Shown here piece after piece: positions 7,660 through 47,828 of a DNA stretch of 64,000 bases. This stretch comes from Gemmatales bacterium. GTDB taxonomy: Bacteria; Planctomycetota; Planctomycetia; Gemmatales; HRBIN36. Position numbers and translations under genes: made by a program. The notes beneath the pieces are model-generated. The model was not told the origin of the DNA, did no database searches, and worked only from the letters and a program-made list of their open reading frames with translations. Each line of letters opens with the position of its first letter. Position 1 is the first letter of the stretch. The stretch is from contig JBEPZY010000004.1 in NCBI GenBank assembly GCA_041640595.1, positions 162,373 through 226,372 on the forward strand, given 5' to 3'.

Positions 7660-8385
7660 CAAGAGCGGGGAGCGTCAGCCCCCCGTGGGATACATCCGCC
7701 GTTGCGAATCGTAAACGCACATCGCAGGCGATGTGTCGCGCATGCAACCAAGAGCGGGGAGCGTCAGCCCCGCGTAGGATACATCCGTCGTTGCGAATCG
7801 GAAACGCACACCGCAGGCGATATGTCGCGCACGCAACCAGGAGCGGGTGGTGTAAGCCCCCCGTGGCACGCGAGCGTTCTCGTCCGGGCTAAAACGTGCG
7901 CTACTGCAAGTGCATTTCGTTCCCACGGCGGGCTGACAGGCGGCGTTCTTGTTAAAAAACCGCGCGCCACTTGCAGCACGTTTTTCCGAGCCACGGCGGG
8001 CTTACGCCGCGCTGCGCTTGTGCACAGCGTGCGTTCACCGACGATAGTCGCACTCCGTGCACCATCGTGCTTGTCGGGCCACGGCGGGCTTACGCCCGCC
8101 GCTCTTGTGAACGTGCGTTTGTGCATCGCAAAAGGCGTTATCTTTCCGGCCAACGGACGCCGTGCAGTGCACCAGGAGCGGGGGGCGTCAGCCCCCCGTG
8201 GGAAATATCCGCCGTTGCGAATCGGAAACGCACACCGCAGGCGATATGTCGCGCATGCAACCAAGAGCGGGGGGCGTCAGCCCCCCGTGGGAAACGTTCG
8301 CCGCTGCGAATCGGAAACGCATACCGCAGGCGATGTGTCGCGCATGCAACCAGGAGAGGCTGGCGTAAGCCAGGCGTGGGTGTGG
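7660..8385. repeat. REP/REPIN-like hairpin cluster 2 (about 9 copies; 89-bp sub-period)
   Basis: aagagcggggagcgtcagccccccgtgg-type copies at 7661, 7750, 7839, 8174, 8263, 8352 plus reverse copies. Confidence 0.9.
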
Positions 8386-18834: not shown

Positions 18835-19004
18835 CATGAAACGCGACCGTTTTCATTCGGGAAAAACTCATTTTCTCCACAACGTGCAGGTGAGGTCCTA
18901 TAGCATGAAACGTGACCGTTTTCGTTCGGGAAAACCCCGTGTGGTGGCGGCAGACACGCTTCCGAGCCACACATGAAATCCGACCGTTTTCGCTCGGGAA
19001 AAAC
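18835..19004. repeat. Mini-array: 3 x 33-bp repeats, 35-36-bp unique spacers, period 68-69
   Basis: catgaaacgcgaccgttttcattcgggaaaaac (18835), catgaaacgtgaccgttttcgttcgggaaaacc (18904), catgaaatccgaccgttttcgctcgggaaaaac (18972). Confidence 0.8.
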
Positions 19005-19029: not shown

Positions 19030-20297
19030 CGGCACGGCGCACAGTCGCCCCCCGCTCTTGATTGTGTATTCGGTCGCTGCTGAACAATGTATGATGCTCG
19101 CGGGACAGCGTTCGCGTCACCGCACCACGGCGGGCTAACGCCCGCCGCTCTTGTGCACGTGCGTTTGTGCACCGCAAAAGTCGCTGTTCCGCCGGCAAAC
19201 GTCCGTACACCGACACAGGAGCGGGGAGCGTAAGCCCCCCGTGGGAAACGAGTCGTTCTTACACGTCCGTTTGCGATACAGTTGCGGGCAACGTTCGATC
19301 GATTGCACCACGGTGGACGGTCGCCCGCCGCTTTTGCGCATGACGCGAGTTACTCGGCTGCAATCGCGTTGTGTCCGTCATCGTGATGCTCGAACCACGG
19401 CGGGCTAACGCGGGCCGCTCTTGATTGTGTATTCGGTCGCTGCTGAACAATGTATGATGCTCGCGGGACACCGTTCGCGTCACCGCACGACGGCGGGCTA
19501 ACGCCCGCCGCTCTTGCTGACGTGCGTTAGTGTATCGCAAAAGTCGCTGTTCCGCCGGCAAACGTCCGTACACCAACACAGGAGCGGGGGGCGTAAGCCC
19601 CCCGTGGGTTCGCTACCGCGACTGCACCGGCGTTCGTGAGCACAGCAATGGCAGTCTCCCGCGACTTTGCGGCAGTGTTCCTGGAAGTGCATTTCCGTAA
19701 CAGCCACGGTGGACGGTCGCAGCGCCGCTCCTGGTCGTGTGTTCGCTCCTCGCTGAACAACATTCGCCTCTCACGGCACAGCGATCGTATGACCGCACCA
19801 CGGCGGGCTGACGCCCGCCGCTCTTGATTGTGTATTCGGTCGCTGCTGAACAATGTATGATGCTCGCGGGACAGCGTTCGCGTCACCGCACCACGGCGGG
19901 CTCACGCCCGCCGCTCTTGTGCACGTGCGTTTGTGCACAGCAAATCGCGCATTTCGCACCGAACGCGCGTCGCGCAGCAAGAGCGGCTGGCGTGAGCCAG
20001 CCGTGGTATGGGAAGCGAATGTGCGGGGCGAAACGTAATCAGTCCACAAAAGCAGGTGCCGTCGCAAGCGCGAATTCGAGCCACGGCGGGCTGACGCCCG
20101 CCGCTCTTGCTGACGTGCGTTGGTGCATCGCAAATCGCGCATTTCGCACCGAACGCGCGTCGCGAACCAAGAGCGGCTGGCGTGAGCCAGCCGTGGTATG
20201 GGAAGCGAATGTGCGGGGCGAAACGTAATCAGTCCACAAAAGCAGGTGCCGTCGCAAGCGCGAATTCGAACCACGGCGGACGGACGCCCGCCGCTGT
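19030..20297. repeat. REP/REPIN-like hairpin cluster (about 14 copies)
   Basis: ccacggcgggctaacgcccgccgctcttg and forward variants; linker blocks reiterated. Confidence 0.9.
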
Positions 20298-20425
20298 TGC
20301 GAGATATGCGCTTCCGATGGGTCAGGTAGAAACAGCCCAGCGAAGGGGCGAGTTCTCACGCCGTCGGCGGGTCTCATTCTCACGCCGTGGGTGACGCAAA
20401 CCAGCGTTGGGCCGGTCGGTGCGAG

Positions 20426-21921: not shown

Positions 21922-22998
21922 ACAAGAGCGGCGGGCGTTAGCCCGCCGTGGTGCGAATTCGCGCTTGCAACGGCTACCGCTTTTGTGGACTAATTACGTT
22001 TCGCCCCGCACATTCGCTTCCCATACCACGGCTGGCTCACGCCAGCCGCTCTTGTTGCAGGGTGCGAGTCGGCTGAGAAATAACGACATTCGCGGTGCAC
22101 AAACGCAGGTTCACAAGAGCGGCAGGCGTCAGCCCGCCGTGGTGCGAATTCGCGCTTGCAACGGCTACCGCTTATTTCAGAATGAGTGCGTTTGCTCGGT
22201 ACGATCGGTTCGCACACCACGGGGGGGCTTACGCCCCCCGCTCCTGACTGCACAAATGTTCGCCGTTGCAGGTAGATGTTTGCGACTTGAAGAAACGTTC
22301 CGTAATTACGCACCGGGGGCTTACGCCCCCCGCTCCTGTGTTGGCGTACGAACGTCTGCCGGCGAAATAACGATTTTTGCGATGCGCGAACGCACGTCAG
22401 CAAGAGCGGCGGGCGTCAGCCCGCCGTGGTGCGAATTCGCGCTTGCAACGGCTACCGCTTATTTCAGACTGAGTGCGTTTGCTCGGTACGATCGGTTCCC
22501 GCACCACGGGGGGTTTACGCCCCCCGCTCATGACTGCACAAAGGTTCGCCATTGCGGATACATGTTTGCGACGTTGAAAAACGTTCCGTAATTACGCACG
22601 GGGGGCTTACGCCCCCCGCTCCTGTATTGGCGTACGAACGTCTGCCGGCGAAATAACGATTTTTGCGATGCACGAACGCACGTCAGCAGGAGCGGCGGGC
22701 GTTAGCCCGCCGTGGTGCGAATTCGCGCTTGTAACGGCTACCGCTTTTGTGGACTAATTACGTTTCGCCCCGCACATTCGCTTCCCATACCACGGCTGGC
22801 TCACGCCAGCCGCTCTTGTTGCAGGGTGCCGGTCGGCTGAGAAATAACGACATTCGCGGTGCACAAACGCAGGTTCACAAGAGCGGCGGGCGTCAGCCCG
22901 CCATGGTGCGGTCATACGATCGCTGTGCCGTGAGAGGCGAATGTTGTTCAGCGAGGAGCGAACACACGACCAAGGGCGTCGAATGTCAGCCCGCCGGG
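21922..22998. repeat. REP/REPIN-like hairpin cluster (about 12 copies)
   Basis: Same core; some linkers are inverted copies of those in the 19030-20297 cluster. Confidence 0.9.
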
Positions 22999-27959: not shown

Positions 27960-28069
27960 AGCAGTTCGTCCGATCACCAACAGTCCGTCGCGTCCCTGAC
28001 TAACCCGGCACCGCGTAGCCGCAGTCCCTGCGGCAGCAGTTCGTCCGATCACCAACAGTCCGTCGCATC
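27960..28069. repeat. Repeat-spacer-repeat unit (35 + 40 bp, period 75)
   Basis: agcagttcgtccgatcaccaacagtccgtcgc(g/a)tc at 27960 and 28035. Confidence 0.85.
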
Positions 28070-28091: not shown

Positions 28092-28204
28092 GGCGTCAGG
28101 GTATCAACGGCAGTAGTCGCCTAGCGACGGCCACCGGCAGAAGGGGATGAAATCTGGGTCTTCTGGGCGTCAGGGGATCGGCGGCAGTAGTCGCCTAGCG
28201 ACGG
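28092..28204. repeat. Repeat-spacer-repeat unit (39 + 35 bp, period 74)
   Basis: ggcgtcaggg(t/g)atc(aa/gg)cggcagtagtcgcctagcgacgg at 28092 and 28166. Confidence 0.85.
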
Positions 28205-30541: not shown

Positions 30542-30652
30542 GTGCGGCCGCTTTCGCCATCAGCATAGTCAATCATGCAGGCATTGGGTGGTTGCTGGCT
30601 CTGCTGGCGGTATGGGTGCGGCCGCTTTCGCCATCAGCATAGCCCATCGTGC
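30542..30652. repeat. Repeat-spacer-repeat unit (37 + 37 bp, period 74)
   Basis: gtgcggccgctttcgccatcagcatagtcaatcatgc (30542) vs gtgcggccgctttcgccatcagcatagcccatcgtgc (30616). Confidence 0.85.
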
Positions 30653-30731: not shown

Positions 30732-31633
30732 CAAGAGCGGCGTGCGTCAGCCGCAGTGGTTCGATAACGCAGCTGCAGATGCAATCGCTTTTCCCGGACT
30801 GAGCACGTCCGCGTGCCACGGCTGGCTCATGCCAGCCGCTCCTGGTGTGCGGCGTCGGTCCGCTGAAAAATAGCGACATTCGCGGTGCACATCCGCACAT
30901 TTTACAAGAGCGGCAGGCGTCAGCCCGCCGTGCGTAACGTAACGTTCTTGCAAATCGGAAACGCCGATCGGCAGCCGCAGCCGTGTGTGCAACCAGGAGC
31001 GGCGGGCGTCAGCCCGCCGTGGGTGTGGAAAACATGTTTGCGCAGACACGAGCGCGATTGTTCGGCGCACTGCCGACGGTGTGCGGTTCGCCGTTGCATT
31101 TGCGTTAATAGTTACCACGGGGGGCTTACGCCCCCCGCTCTTGGTGGTTCTGCGGTGCGGACATTTGCCGGCGAAACTGCGACTTGTGCGATACACAAAC
31201 GCTCGTTTACAGGAGCGGCGTGCGTCAGCCCGCCGTGGGTAACGTAACGTTCTTGCAAATCGGAAACGCCGATCGGCAGCCGCAGCCGTGTGTGCAACCA
31301 GGAGCGGCGGGCGTCAGCCCGCCGTGGGTGTGGGAAACATGTTTGCGCAGACACGAGCGCGATTGTTCGGCGCACTGCCGACGGTGTGCGGATCGCCGTT
31401 GCATTTGCGTTAATAGTTACCACGGGGGGCTTACGCCCCCCGCTCTTGGTGGTTCTGCGGTGCGGACATTTGCCAACGAAACTGCGACTTGTGCGATACA
31501 CGAACGCTCGTTCTACAAGAGCGGCGGGCGTCAGCCCGCCGTGGGTAACGTAACGTTCTTGCAAATCGGAAACGCCGATCGGCAGCCGCAGCCGTGTGTG
31601 CAACCAGGAGCGGTGACCGTCAGCCCGCCGTGG
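30732..31633. repeat. REP/REPIN-like hairpin cluster (about 10 copies; about 305-bp tandem block)
   Basis: Same REP core; block near 30905-31210 repeated near 31210-31515. Confidence 0.9.
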
Positions 31634-37782: not shown

Positions 37783-39078
37783 ATGACCAGGTCTCACCGA
37801 GTGGTGAAGCTGGCGGTCTTCTCAATGTTCGCGGCTGTCCTGGGAGGGATAATTAGCATGTCGCTGGCGGCTAGAAAAATCTCCGTTCTTGGAGACCTCG
37901 AGGACTGTGCACACGTAAGATTGTCTTTGCAAGATGGCCAGGTTCGAGTGCACGCTATAGAACCCTCAGGCCGGTTACTCATGCTCGACTTGAAGACTAA
38001 GGAAATCAAAAAACTGAGGGTAAAAGATTTAGAACTTGACGGCACGCAGCACATCTCCGTCGGAGGCCTGTTTGCCCCTATGAGTCCAACTCATTACGGT
38101 GTTAGAGCTCCAGATTCAAGCTTAGTCAACCTTTTTGTCGTGAGGGGAGCCGGTGAGGATTGCCAAACCTGGCTAGTTGATTTAGATACTGGAGCCGCCG
38201 TACTTCGACTCGAGGGTGGCTGGTACTGCTTGCCTACCGGCGATGGGATCTACGTTGTCTGGTCAGGCGAGCGAATACCTGGAAAAACGAAGCAGGAGTA
38301 TATTATCTATCGCTATGCAAATGCTAGGTTAGAAAAATTCTCGTCCTGGCAGCCTGATTTACCCATACAGAGTATTCTTTTTGCTCGATCACACGGAAAC
38401 TCGATTCGTATAGTTTGCGAGCGTCTCGTAGGAGAGAATCAAGGTACCCAACACAAGGTCGGGCAATTAGGACAAGCTCGTGCTATTTATCTCATAGATT
38501 TAGAAACACAGACAGCCAGAGTCCTGAGGTCTAAAAAGGTATTGGAGCTAAAACGCACTCCAGGCCGTGACAAGTCCTGGCCTTCAGCAGCAGTCTTCCC
38601 CGCACCATCGCCTGATAGCGTCTATATATACGAGCCTCAGAATCGTTCTCTCTATCTTTTTGACTGGAAGACGCTCCAAATGATTCGTGAGTTAAAACTG
38701 CGGATTCAAAAGAACTCAGAGGATAATGAATGGGAGCTCATTCCCTTCTTTATTATCCATCCTAATAAACCTCTGGCATTGCTGGTGTTTCCTATGGGGT
38801 TCGTATATCTGTTAGACTTGTCAGACGGTAGCCTTCGCCTATTGGGCGATGAACATTTCAAGAAGTTAAATCAATTTGTCATGACGCGCAGCCAGGAAGA
38901 GCCACTGGTTGGGTTAGCGGCAGTGCATTTTATGATGAAAGATGGAGTTTTCATGCCTAACGAGAATCAGGTGGTTGTAGTCGCGGGTTCTGGACATGTT
39001 TATATTTACAACTTAGCGCAGTCCAGACTGGACGCAGTTTTTCGTCTGACAGCAGAAGACCTCTTCGAACGCAAATAA
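37783..39078 (+). CDS. Exported beta-rich (propeller-like) protein, putative immunity
   Basis: Signal/TM N-terminus; repeated YLxDLxxG blades; directly after the toxin-like fragment; ATG 37783 after GGAG. Confidence 0.65.
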   Translation: MTRSHRVVKLAVFSMFAAVLGGIISMSLAARKISVLGDLEDCAHVRLSLQDGQVRVHAIEPSGRLLMLDLKTKEIKKLRVKDLELDGTQHISVGGLFAPMSPTHYGVRAPDSSLVNLFVVRGAGEDCQTWLVDLDTGAAVLRLEGGWYCLPTGDGIYVVWSGERIPGKTKQEYIIYRYANARLEKFSSWQPDLPIQSILFARSHGNSIRIVCERLVGENQGTQHKVGQLGQARAIYLIDLETQTARVLRSKKVLELKRTPGRDKSWPSAAVFPAPSPDSVYIYEPQNRSLYLFDWKTLQMIRELKLRIQKNSEDNEWELIPFFIIHPNKPLALLVFPMGFVYLLDLSDGSLRLLGDEHFKKLNQFVMTRSQEEPLVGLAAVHFMMKDGVFMPNENQVVVVAGSGHVYIYNLAQSRLDAVFRLTAEDLFERK

Positions 39079-44610: not shown

Positions 44611-46171
44611 TTAGCCTACCTGCACGAAGACGATCTCTAAAATGGTCGGGTCATTTTTCTTAGCCCGCAATCCCGCTGGGAAAACGTATACGAAACCATC
44701 CAGAGCAGCGTTCTCCCACTCATTTTTCCGTGCTGTATGGTCCTCCGCCATAAGAAGGATCATAATAGGCATCTGCAACCCGCACGACGAAATGATTTGC
44801 AAAAGCGGAAGGTGGATCGGGATTGCCTTGTCCCGGTACCCCCGCTTTTGGCTTAACTTCGGAGACCGTCGGGTCATCCAAATCTATTATATATGTGTAG
44901 GGACTAGTCGCTGGAGAACCGCCTGCGCCGTTGAATTCCCAGTTCTTGACCAGCATACCTGTTCGCCACGGTAGGGCATATAGTCCGGTGACTGGGTCTA
45001 TGGGTTGGTCAGCACTAAATACCATGAATTTTCTAGCCCCCTGAACGCTTATGGCCCCGTAAGTATCTATCAGCAACTCGGCCCAGGAGCCGCACTGGCC
45101 GTTTGCGTGGGCTAAAAGTTGCTGTGTGTTGACCGCAGTGGCCCTGCCGCCAGCCCAGTACCTCAATTGAGTGTCATCCACACGACGGACTTCCCGATCA
45201 GTGAAATCACTCCAAATTGCTGAGATAACATCTGATTCGTTTGTTTTGCCGTCAGCGTTCTTCGAGCCCAGATGCACCAGGGTATGGTATAAGTTTACCC
45301 CTGGTTTGAGGGCAGGGTCGGCAAAAGTAAGGTACAAAGGATTTGGCGTCGACCCCGCCTTCGTCCAGGTTGAGTTGGCGCGCTGGCTGTCGGAGGTGGC
45401 TTGCCAGTCCAGCCTGAAGAGATTTGCACCAACGTAAGCTTGCACCACATTCGGAAATGCCACCGGCGACTCCGTTACGTCAAGCACGAGTTCAGTCGGG
45501 TTCGTCGGGTCGACGCGCACAGCCTTCGGCCCTACGTGAATCTGGAATCCCGTCGCAGGGTCCGCCGGCCCCGTCGCCATCACATAAATCGGGCCGCCAC
45601 CCCACGCAGTATCTAAGACGAACCGGGCACTCACTTTCAACGTTGTACCCCGGGTGTAAGCGTATGGCCAGCTATGCTCATCCGCATCCTCCGCATCCCC
45701 GTCTAAGTTTTTGTCCAACCAGTGTTCCGAACTATAGGCCACGTCGGGAGCTATTACTCCAGTCGGGTCCAGCTCCGGGTCCCGGTACACGGTATGCCCG
45801 CCGCTGAACGTTACCGACCGGATACCAAGGATTTTAGCCGTGTGAACAACGACCGTTTGCGTCGCCTCGGCAACCCCATCACTAACGGTGTACGTGAACG
45901 AGTCGTCCCCAGTGTGTGGAGCATCTGGCCGCTCGACTGCATAATAAACAAAATCACCGTTGGGATTCATCACCAGCTGAGCACCGGATGGTAGTCGCAT
46001 CAACTGCCGCGGTGGCTGATCGTTAATCTTGACCACGCGTAAGCTATCGCCATCGGCGTCAGTATCGTTCGCCAGGACGTTTCCCCGAACGGCACTCCCC
46101 GCCAGGACGTAATACTCGTCATTTACAGCCTCCGGAGCAGTGTTATGAACAGCAATCCAAGCCACAGCCAT
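44611..46171 (-). pseudogene. Ig-like repeat + transglutaminase-like (Cys-His-Asp) putative toxin; 5'-interrupted, probable frameshift near 44725
   Basis: GNVLANDTDADGD..DSFTYTVSDG; GQCGSWA, NHFVV, YYDPSYG; EWENAALDGF tail lies in another frame. Confidence 0.7.
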
Positions 46172-46317
46172 TTGTCGGAACTAGAGAATTCATTTGCCAA
46201 CCAGAGAGGAGCAGTGTTATGAACAGTGTCCAAGCCATAGCCACTGGGATTGTTAACAGTGAGTTTATTATACTGGTAGTGGAGCAGTGTTATGAACGGT
46301 GATCCAAGCCATAGCCA
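46134..46317. repeat. CRISPR-like mini-array made of duplicated coding sequence: 3 x 36-37-bp repeats, 2 x 37-bp spacers
   Basis: ggagcagtgttatgaac...tccaagcca(c/t)agcca at 46134, 46208 and 46281; encodes AMAWITVHNTAP on the minus strand. Confidence 0.9.
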
Positions 46318-46785
46318 GGCCTAAAGCTATACCATCCGTAAACCCAAATACAAAAGCATCGGTGCCAGTATAACCAGCCGCCGGTGTATATCTAAACCTG
46401 CCATCATCATTCAATACCACCGTGCCATTCGTCGGAGCGGAGATTAGTTGCGCCGAGAAAACGCTGGGGCTTGAAAGCATTGGCACGGTGATAGCGTCGC
46501 CGTCCGGATCGTAGCCGCAGAGCTGGCCGACCAACTCGCGGTCGTGCAATACACTGAAACTCTGCATGGCGCCCAGCTGGGCAGACCTCCACCTATAGTA
46601 GCCGGTCGGTTTGTGATCATCCAATACGCTGAAGCTGGCATCGTAGGCATACGGCGCGTTGTTATAAACATCTATCACGACAGTGGCCGTGTTGCCGGTG
46701 GTCAGCCCATCCGACCAGGTGTAGGTGAAACTATCCGTACCGACGTAGTGCGTGTTCGGTGTATACGTGAAGCTGCCGTCGGGAA
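46268..46785 (-). pseudogene. Ig-like (Big_9) 5' arm of the transglutaminase cassette, carrying insertions
   Basis: PDGSFTYTPNTHYVGTDSFTYTWSDG..IDVYNNAPYAYDASFSVL[75-bp insert]HDRELVGQL..DAIT[33-bp insert]AQL. Confidence 0.75.
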
Positions 46786-46832
46786 GGGCACTTGGCTGTG
46801 AGCAAACAGCAGCTGCCCATCTTACGGGCAGC

Positions 46833-47828
46833 CTACGGAGTTTTCGGAGCTAAGTCGCCACTCGGTTTCAGAAGGTTTTCTACCAAAGGTTTGATCGCTG
46901 GATGGTTTTCTTTCTCCATTAGCTTCAGGAGTTCTGGAGTCATGTATAACTTCGGATGCTTTCGCACCTGTTCTACCAAATATCGCCTCACATACCACTG
47001 CGGACACGAATCCCATAGTCGTTGAAGGTCTTGCGCAACTCTCTTTTTGAGCACCTCAACATCTTTCTGCAAAGCTAAGCATCGATCCTCTGGCAGGTAC
47101 TTTCGCAACTCGGCCTCACTTCTCACCCAGGTCTGCTTAAGCTCTAAATTACGGACCTCGGAAGACACATACCCAAACAGCACCCTATGTCCTGGCGGTA
47201 CTTCTTCGTCTAGCCAAGAACTATAAACTTCGAAGAATAGTTGGACGGCCTGTACGGGCTTTTCCTCGAAAAGTCGGTCCAGGAATTCTTTCGGAGGCAA
47301 TTTTCCCTGACGCAAGTATGAGGCCAGCCATGTTTCTATCCCAGCAGGTCTAGATGGATATGGTCCAAAAGACTTATCAGGCAGGAATTCAAGTACATAT
47401 TCTAATGCGGACCTGCGGAGCTTGTCATCGTCGGAAGATTCTATCAGAGGCAATAATGCTCCTGTAAACCGGTCTCCCGCAACTTGGGTGACAATTGTGA
47501 TTAGCTTGTAAATTGCCATAAACTCGGGATGCGGCTGGTCGTCGGACGTCTGCTCGCCCAAGAACAGCAACTCTTTTAACAGTTCTTTAGCTGCTGCTGT
47601 CTGAGCAGCATCCGGCACAGGTTTCTGGAACAGCAGCAGCGCCTCATGGGCAACTAACCAGTGTTCCTTATCCGTTTTTGCCCTTTTTGCTTGGTGGATG
47701 ATCTGCCGCATCTTTTCGGCCGCTTGATGCTCTGCATTAGCCTCCTGAGCATCTGCGTTTAGTGTCACCAGCACTTGCAGCAGCACGAGCACTCGTGCGA
47801 AATTATTGACGACTCTGAGCATAGCCAA
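46833..47828 (-). CDS. Exported helical immunity-like protein, paralog 3
   Basis: Signal peptide; conserved C-terminus WYVRRYL..TPELLKLMEKENHPAIKPLVE. Confidence 0.8.
   Translation of the reverse strand: MAMLRVVNNFARVLVLLQVLVTLNADAQEANAEHQAAEKMRQIIHQAKRAKTDKEHWLVAHEALLLFQKPVPDAAQTAAAKELLKELLFLGEQTSDDQPHPEFMAIYKLITIVTQVAGDRFTGALLPLIESSDDDKLRRSALEYVLEFLPDKSFGPYPSRPAGIETWLASYLRQGKLPPKEFLDRLFEEKPVQAVQLFFEVYSSWLDEEVPPGHRVLFGYVSSEVRNLELKQTWVRSEAELRKYLPEDRCLALQKDVEVLKKRVAQDLQRLWDSCPQWYVRRYLVEQVRKHPKLYMTPELLKLMEKENHPAIKPLVENLLKPSGDLAPKTP

Follow-up and report, generated by a model that had tools for sequence, protein, structure and literature searches.

The closest described counterparts of the locus reported here are the neo-CRISPR arrays of Escherichia coli. 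With a type I-E system and overproduced Cas1-Cas2, off-target integration can spawn arrays (Nivala, Shipman and Church, 2018, Nat Microbiol; via 10.1101/148544, PMC7054753), while for natural off-target integration a preprint citing that work speaks only of "circumstantial evidence", in two other species (10.1101/148544). In vitro, Cas1-Cas2 of Pyrococcus furiosus makes paired attacks on opposite strands of non-CRISPR DNA, 30 bp apart; G or C is preferred at the borders, and the preferred plasmid sites are repeat-like, with 43% identity (PMC6698737). Ectopic spacer acquisition has been described for type II-A arrays of Streptococcus thermophilus and S. mutans (PMC7999890, PMC5338259, PMC8265633), and casposon integration involves a Cas1-family integrase and produces target-site duplications (PMC5137440, PMC6977970). 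A search of the literature on natural ectopic or off-target insertions outside arrays returned no such scars in wild genomes, which may nevertheless exist elsewhere.

The window analysed here is a stretch of 64,000 nucleotides from a Gemmatales bacterium (GenBank assembly GCA_041640595.1, contig JBEPZY010000004.1, positions 162,373 to 226,372). Within one of its genes, a short coding segment (R) is present in three copies that alternate with two inserts (S1 and S2). This R-S-R-S-R structure is best regarded as a natural, twice-used off-target integration site within coding sequence, of the neo-CRISPR kind. It is very probably the scar of two successive off-target ("ectopic") integrations by the host Cas1-Cas2 that serves the 37-nt-repeat array of this genome, referred to below as array A. 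We infer the enzyme responsible, the order of the two insertions and an outside source of the inserts, and derive the course of events from the anatomy of the locus and the published mechanism of Cas1-Cas2; directly observed are the dimensions, an empty site, the adaptation genes, the occurrence in several wild populations and the many similar scars in the genome.

A coding segment in triplicate around two inserts

The unit spans window positions 46134-46317 and reads R1-S1-R2-S2-R3 on the plus strand. R1 (46134-46170, minus strand, 37 nt) is the target copy furthest from the presumed leader side and encodes AVAWIAVHNTAP. R2 (46208-46243, minus strand) is the middle copy and has 36 nt, one base being missing, and R3 (46281-46317, minus strand, 37 nt) adjoins the 5' part of the host gene and encodes AMAWITVHNTAP. 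The unstranded inserts S1 (46171-46207) and S2 (46244-46280) are 37 nt each and unique in the genome. An earlier note on this DNA had described a 37-nt segment in triplicate around two 37-nt spacers, and this description holds at the coordinates it gave. The borders of R are exact, because the bases outside it differ at all three copies (C, A and T before, T, C and G after). The copies are 89-97% alike, differing among themselves at one to four positions, and their start-to-start period is 74 and then 73 nt. The two inserts and two extra copies (37+37+36+37) come to 147 nt, or 49 codons.

The interrupted gene

The host gene lies on the minus strand. By its Pfam annotation, R is flanked by two Big_9 (bacterial Ig)/cadherin-like domains, in line with its earlier description as a linker between two Ig repeats. 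It had also been noted that one spacer introduces stops; this is S2, which carries an in-frame TAA TAA, while S1 is open in the frame of the host gene. The upstream piece therefore terminates in S2 and the host gene is split. This piece (46268-46849, minus strand, 193 codons from stop to stop) begins within a Big_9 domain, has no N-terminal part of its own, and ends in ...FTDGIALGLAMAWITVHNTAPLPV, i.e. ...NTAPLPV, with the stop inside S2; a 333-aa frame of no family ends at 46833. The downstream piece (44720-46180, minus strand, 486 codons), which starts ...MAVAWIAVHNTAPEAVNDEYY, holds one Big_9/cadherin-like domain followed by about 370 aa of no family. An ATG at 46171-46169 on the minus strand bridges the S1/R1 junction, taking its A from the spacer and its TG from the repeat. 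Counted from this junction ATG the downstream piece has 483 codons, so that through the insertion the C-terminal part may have acquired a start codon.

The gene had been called a toxin gene, a label that the domain searches do not bear out: Pfam and NCBIfam give only Big_9, Cadherin_4/5 and tandem-95 adhesin-type domains. The C-terminal 376 aa had no family match and no PDB relative at E<=1. Their neighbours in the Atlas are annotated as hypothetical, and a transglutaminase-like lead reached only 0.76. In the C-terminal stretch of about 370 aa (44720-45850, minus strand; L014:8955-10586 in the paralog described below) the motifs GQCGSWA, NH(F/Y) and YYDPSYG are conserved between the paralogs, and read GQCGSWA ... 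NHFVV ... YYDPSYG in the window; the domain may be an enzyme of the Cys-His-Asp type, similar to papain or transglutaminase. Its final 120 aa or so are far more diverged between the paralogs than the remainder, as in swappable C-terminal modules. Over 469 codons, the downstream pieces of the window copy and the paralog have a pN/pS of 0.47.

Between window positions 38000 and 64000 the GC content falls from about 0.60 to about 0.50, and the region is rich in fragments of Big_9-repeat genes, with segments that are 85-93% identical to one another, to C4:238600-239071 and to sequence on contig C3. The region looks like an island of recombining adhesin-like modules.

An empty site in a paralog

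A BLAST search of the region against the genome found a paralog on contig C3, about 95% identical, with a single R at C3:616446-616482. Window 45081-46170 aligns with C3:615405-616482 at 95.5% and window 46281-46561 aligns with C3:616446-616726 at 94%, so that the two alignments overlap on C3 by exactly the 37 nt of R. The immediate flanks of the paralog's R match the outer flanks in the window at 40 of 40 bases on each side. The reading frame of the paralog passes straight through R (...GIALGLAMAWIAVHNTAPEAVNDEYY...), and both S1 and S2 are absent. Since a single R lies between identical flanks in the paralog, the copies of R stem from duplication of a target, not from ordinary coding repetition, and S1 and S2 were inserted; the empty site is that of a paralog and not of an allele of the interrupted locus. 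The proposal that R is a target-site duplication of pre-existing coding DNA, used twice, thus stands, with the C3 paralog as the uninterrupted empty site and with the triplication absent from this homologue. A metagenome contig from a second public assembly, 99.6% identical to the paralog, is likewise empty.

The comparison also bears on whether the structure could have arisen from a tandem duplication of 74 nt, or from slippage during replication, with the interior diverging afterwards. Such an origin would account for the regular period of 74 and 73 nt, but S1 and S2 are identical at only 10 of 37 positions in register (11 of 37 when one is compared with the reverse complement of the other), which is the chance level and agrees with the earlier statement that the spacers are mutually unrelated. 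The R copies are 89-97% alike, and this is too uneven for adjacent 37-nt blocks. With S1 and S2 both missing from the paralog, slippage is already contradicted and retains a negligible probability.

The paralog is itself interrupted: some 130 nt upstream of R it has an in-frame TAA (L014:10614-10616; C3:616613-616615) in place of the CAA of the window copy. Taken with the start of the window's upstream piece in mid-domain, this makes both copies look, by their sequences, like decaying or orphan gene fragments. The window also has 75 additional in-frame bases relative to the paralog, at 46547-46621. Within a 37-nt window there, 24 of 37 bases are identical at a shift of 75 nt, against at most 14 at shifts of 73, 74 and 76 nt. 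The extra bases could be a strongly decayed scar of the 37-nt class retained as coding sequence, or the paralog could have undergone a deletion between short repeats. A contig from one public metagenome (run X4) has the form that is shorter by 75 nt and runs on into paralog sequence. Among 40 related genomes the best match to the locus was only 78% over 158 nt, so the insertion cannot be dated by way of orthologs in these relatives.

Divergence of the repeat copies and order of insertion

The three copies of R were compared with the paralog's R as outgroup, with positions numbered on the plus strand. R1 differs from it only by T31C, R2 by C20T, A21G and the loss of A22, and R3 by A18G, C20T and A21G. 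The change of CA to TG is thus common to R2 and R3 and absent from R1 and the paralog. This makes R2 and R3 sister copies, and on the pattern of shared substitutions S2 is probably the younger and S1 the older insert. Gene conversion of R1 by the paralog could give the same pattern and would undo this order. By analogy with native arrays, the leader-like side would be the upstream side of the host gene. One contig from an RNA library (run X5) has an extra A after 46228, which gives R2 its full 37 nt; both duplications were therefore of 37 nt, and the base was lost later, in some strains but not in others. As the three copies differ at one to four positions, the insertion events are old.

Source of the inserts

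The GC content of S1 is 0.41 and that of S2 is 0.35, against about 0.51 in the local 2 kb and 0.58 in the contig, which agrees with the claim that the spacers are AT-richer than their surroundings. Both fall in the low-GC tail of the native spacers, only some 25 of 246 of which have a GC content of 0.39 or less, and both differ from the other ectopic inserts in the genome, only 4 of 40 of which are below 0.45. Low GC hints at an AT-rich invader and proves nothing. Neither insert has another copy of at least 15 nt in the 4.45-Mb genome or among the native spacers. In scans that demand exact identity, which diverged protospacers would escape, the full 37-mers and the 20/21-nt halves had no match in viral_contigs and the 22-nt cores had none in genome_contigs; blastn against a phage collection gave no match at E<=1. 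The earlier description of the spacers as foreign is thus favoured, as an inference, by their low GC and lack of a self match, while the phage and contig collections yielded no source for them.

Resident CRISPR systems and the proposed origin

The genome has two sets of CRISPR arrays and two Cas1 genes above the Pfam cut-off. Array A (C1:359749-377934) is made up of 247 repeats of 37 nt, all but one identical, and 246 spacers. The spacers are most often 37 nt long (99), followed by 36 (81), 38 (38), 35 (12) and 39 nt (11), with 5 of other lengths. Directly upstream of it lie genes for Cas2, a 101-aa frame, a 550-aa reverse transcriptase and Cas1; the reverse transcriptase is group-II-intron-like, below the NCBIfam cut-off. 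Array B, on contigs C8 and C10, has 30-nt repeats and 36-37-nt spacers and adjoins a type I-B + III-B locus with Cas1b and Cas7 (above NCBIfam cut-offs), Cas4, Cas3 and Cas5 (Pfam) and Cmr genes. The 37/37 geometry of the mini-array has the dimensions of array A, in the length of R and in the lengths of both inserts. As the repeats of array A are of 37 nt and its commonest spacers are of 37 nt, the array-A module, rather than the 30-nt array, is named as the responsible one.

Two further observations concern the native arrays. At the leader end of array A (C1:359749-361000) neighbouring spacers overlap, several of them with ...CCTGTATCCGCGCTGCCGCC... or ...CAGCAATAATCATGTCCAACCACC..., which indicates that the RT-linked module drew spacers more than once from the same short stretches of its targets. 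At C3:328836-328932 two copies of a diverged array-B repeat (GTGCTAATCGAACCAACGTGGGATTGAAAA) enclose an insert that agrees at 31 of 34 bases with positions 699-732 of C15, a small contig of low GC content and perhaps a mobile element within this assembly.

The proposed course of events begins with two staggered attacks, 37 bp apart, by the array-A Cas1-Cas2, encoded beside the reverse transcriptase, on the Big_9-repeat gene. A 37-nt prespacer would have been joined in. Gap filling would then have doubled the 37-bp target to give R-S1-R. The copy on the 5' side would later have been struck in the same register, producing R3-S2-R2-S1-R1 on the minus strand. In the simplest order, S1 would have entered, CA would have changed to TG in the copy on the gene's 5' side, S2 would have entered that copy, and single changes would have followed. 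The second insert would have supplied the stop codons that split the gene, and the R copies would have drifted by four transitions and one 1-nt deletion.

The earlier note had gone further and proposed a nascent CRISPR-like array. In a functional sense this is not sustained, as R is unlike the native repeat and leader, its copies have diverged and no protospacer was found. In register, R is identical to the native repeat at 10 of 37 and 6 of 37 positions, which is the chance level. R with its flanks was also compared with the host leader-repeat junction, as had been suggested, and similarity was at the level of shuffled sequence: against the repeat together with the final 40 nt of leader A, the observed local-alignment score was reached by 232 of 300 and 298 of 300 shuffles. 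A working newborn array, in which a host transcript carries the units and is processed to guide RNAs used in defence, would fit with the re-use of the neo-repeat in register, like the first repeat of an array. If the younger spacer marks the leader side, its polarity would be the direction of transcription of the host gene, and contigs of the RNA library X5 cover the region, although transcription is not implied by them. Against this, R has no ATTGAAAC-type 3' end and is unlike both native repeats, and its copies are predicted to fold no better than shuffled sequence (an equal or better fold was reached by 70, 41 and 22 of 200 shuffles). Its copies have diverged and one has lost a base, whereas all but one of the 247 native repeats are identical, and a target was found for neither spacer. 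A working array is thus very unlikely, and the mini-array is most likely an inert scar.

Similar scars across the genome

After masking of the true arrays, the genome was scanned along all diagonals between 40 and 160 nt for a non-repeated spacer enclosed by short direct repeats. The resulting lists are unfiltered, with a few entries that occur twice and some repeats of the protein or tandem type (e.g. C4:157394, C8:39471 and C8:99324); they hold 5 matches in total at distances of 40-64 nt, 52 at 65-68 nt with a repeat-length mode of 30-31, and 75 at 72-76 nt with a mode of 36-38, including 18-24 per distance at 73-75 nt. The peaks thus lie at the two native array periods, and the duplication sizes are the two native repeat lengths; units of this kind exceed what chance would give. 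The distances are not limited to multiples of three, and every event has its own repeat sequence. The R-S-R-S-R unit at 46134 is itself absent from the lists because the base missing from R2 interrupts the ungapped diagonal. There is a third peak at 88-96 nt, which seems to come from paired copies of a palindromic CCACGGCGGGCTGACGCCCGCC element. The window has long tandem and dispersed repeats built on the palindrome AAGAGCGGCGGGCGTCAGCCCGCCGTGG (REP-like) at 7660-8371, 19890-20300, 22077-22746 and 30901-31633, and these repeats probably account for the 88-96-nt peak.

The sizes bear on an alternative independent of CRISPR, in which S1 and S2 would be very small mobile elements, either MITE-like or left over from transposons, that each duplicated 37 bp of target on entry. 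Direct duplication of a target around an insert is a general hallmark of transposition. Yet S1 and S2 occur once each and have no similarity to one another beyond chance, no inverted repeats were found in window 45000-47500, and the duplications across the genome have the two native repeat lengths. To our knowledge, no transposon family makes duplications of 30 or 37 bp; those of casposons are about 14-15 bp. Mobile elements are accordingly a highly improbable source.

A link to real spacers comes from a 30-nt-class scar at C2:174386, whose insert agrees with a spacer of native array B at 30 of 31 bases; another insert of this class contains 24 nt of the cas1b gene. Of 40 repeat pairs from the 37-nt class, 5 are identical, and 7, 19, 7 and 2 differ at one, two, three and four bases, respectively. 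With this usual difference of one or two bases, most scars are old, as is R-S-R-S-R. Both flanks lie in long open frames at 22 of 77 scars, against 63 +/- 3.4 for random sites; scars are therefore depleted from long open frames, and R-S-R-S-R, being in coding sequence, is of a rarer kind. A search for a target-site motif with orientation-optimised logos gave 5.5 bits for 40 sites of the 37-nt class and 6.3 bits for 35 of the 30-nt class, compared with 3.9-5.2 bits for random sites, and the sole position to stand out was a G at repeat position 1 in the 30-nt class (0.8 bit).

Other scars lie within the window. At 18835-19002 (C4:181207-181374) there is a 30-nt-class scar in which a 31-nt repeat, a 38-nt insert and a second 31-nt repeat are followed by a third, diverged copy at 18972 with 4 substitutions, making this a second multi-insert site in the window. 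Units of the 37-nt class lie at 27960-28066, 28092-28204 and 30542-30642 (C4:190332, C4:190464 and C4:192914), with periods of 75, 74 and 74 nt and each with its own repeat sequence.

An adjacent third copy was found at 12 of the 77 catalogued scars, some of which are ordinary tandem repeats. This number is far above that for independent events in 4.45 Mb and is the ground for a further, tentative reading. In it, a filled 37-bp site would become a preferred substrate of the RT-linked Cas1-Cas2, arrays would seed and grow from ordinary DNA that does not resemble a repeat, and the hundred-plus scars would be the record of an integrase with unusually relaxed site choice; this is possible but doubtful.

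Occurrence in public metagenomes

Parts of the window were found in 20 public runs, mostly metagenomes of hot springs and mats, and the mini-array is on contigs of all four that were examined in detail, from four studies (X1, X2, X4 and X5). Contigs of 197 nt in X1 and X4 cover 46135-46331 with 0 differences, and a 349-nt contig in X2 covers 46083-46431, bridging both flanks, also with 0 differences. Two contigs of X5, the RNA library, lie over the region; they give no ends or strand, and carry-over of DNA is possible. An artefact of assembly or binning might be suspected in a 42-contig assembly with an estimated completeness of 95%, the more so as X1 is possibly the same sample as the genome assembly. 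The same junctions are, however, present on independent contigs of X2, X4 and X5, which come from other studies, and the X2 contig spans both flanks without a difference. With contigs of four runs bearing the structure, the suggestion of an assembly artefact, raised in the earlier note as a possible objection, is not upheld, and there is practically no chance of its being correct.

Alleles with no spacer or one spacer were sought as well. No joint skipping 73, 74 or 147 nt was found in the four runs, whose contigs are short and break at repeats, and a metagenome search with the end of R and the right flank matched only the paralog's copy. The depth of the array contig was 30.3 in X1, against 30.5 and 30.7 for single-copy flanks, and 50.2 in X4, against 56.8 and 52.3; contig depth is a poor measure, and such equal depth is at most a weak hint.

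Comparison with known systems

The locus is a clean natural case in that the forms before and after insertion are present in one genome and the dimensions point to one of two resident adaptation modules. In addition, the neo-repeat was used twice and the structure was found in several independent hot-spring metagenomes. Since the insertion interrupts a gene, there was a cost, and on this reading CRISPR adaptation is able to mutate genes by insertion in nature. With the vacant site of the paralog and the occupied one, a concrete pair of substrates is at hand for studying how arrays begin. If the array-seeding reading were true, the locus would be a natural snapshot of the birth of a CRISPR array, with an empty paralog, two ordered steps and fixation in wild strains.

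Among the described systems, casposons share with the present case a Cas1-family integrase that makes target-site duplications. They are kilobase-sized elements with short duplications. The scars described here differ from them in having only spacer-sized inserts and no element. Ectopic acquisition in Streptococcus likewise involves insertion away from the leader-proximal repeat, but there "ectopic" refers to an internal repeat of a true array, whereas the target here was ordinary coding DNA. The in vitro reactions of the P. furiosus Cas1-Cas2 are similar in their paired attacks at repeat length on non-CRISPR DNA, and the 30-nt-class scars of this genome have a G at position 1. The P. furiosus sites, on a plasmid in vitro, resembled the repeat, in contrast to the chance identity of R (10 of 37).

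The E. coli neo-CRISPR arrays are alike in several respects: a spacer-sized insert, duplication of a non-CRISPR sequence of native-repeat length, the involvement of resident adaptation proteins, and the ability to seed an array. They are reported as a laboratory product of overproduced Cas1-Cas2 and as rare events, while the present case is natural and fixed in wild hot-spring populations. It differs from them further in lying within coding sequence, in having been used twice, in its association with an RT-linked module with 37-nt repeats, and in having an internal control in the form of the empty site.
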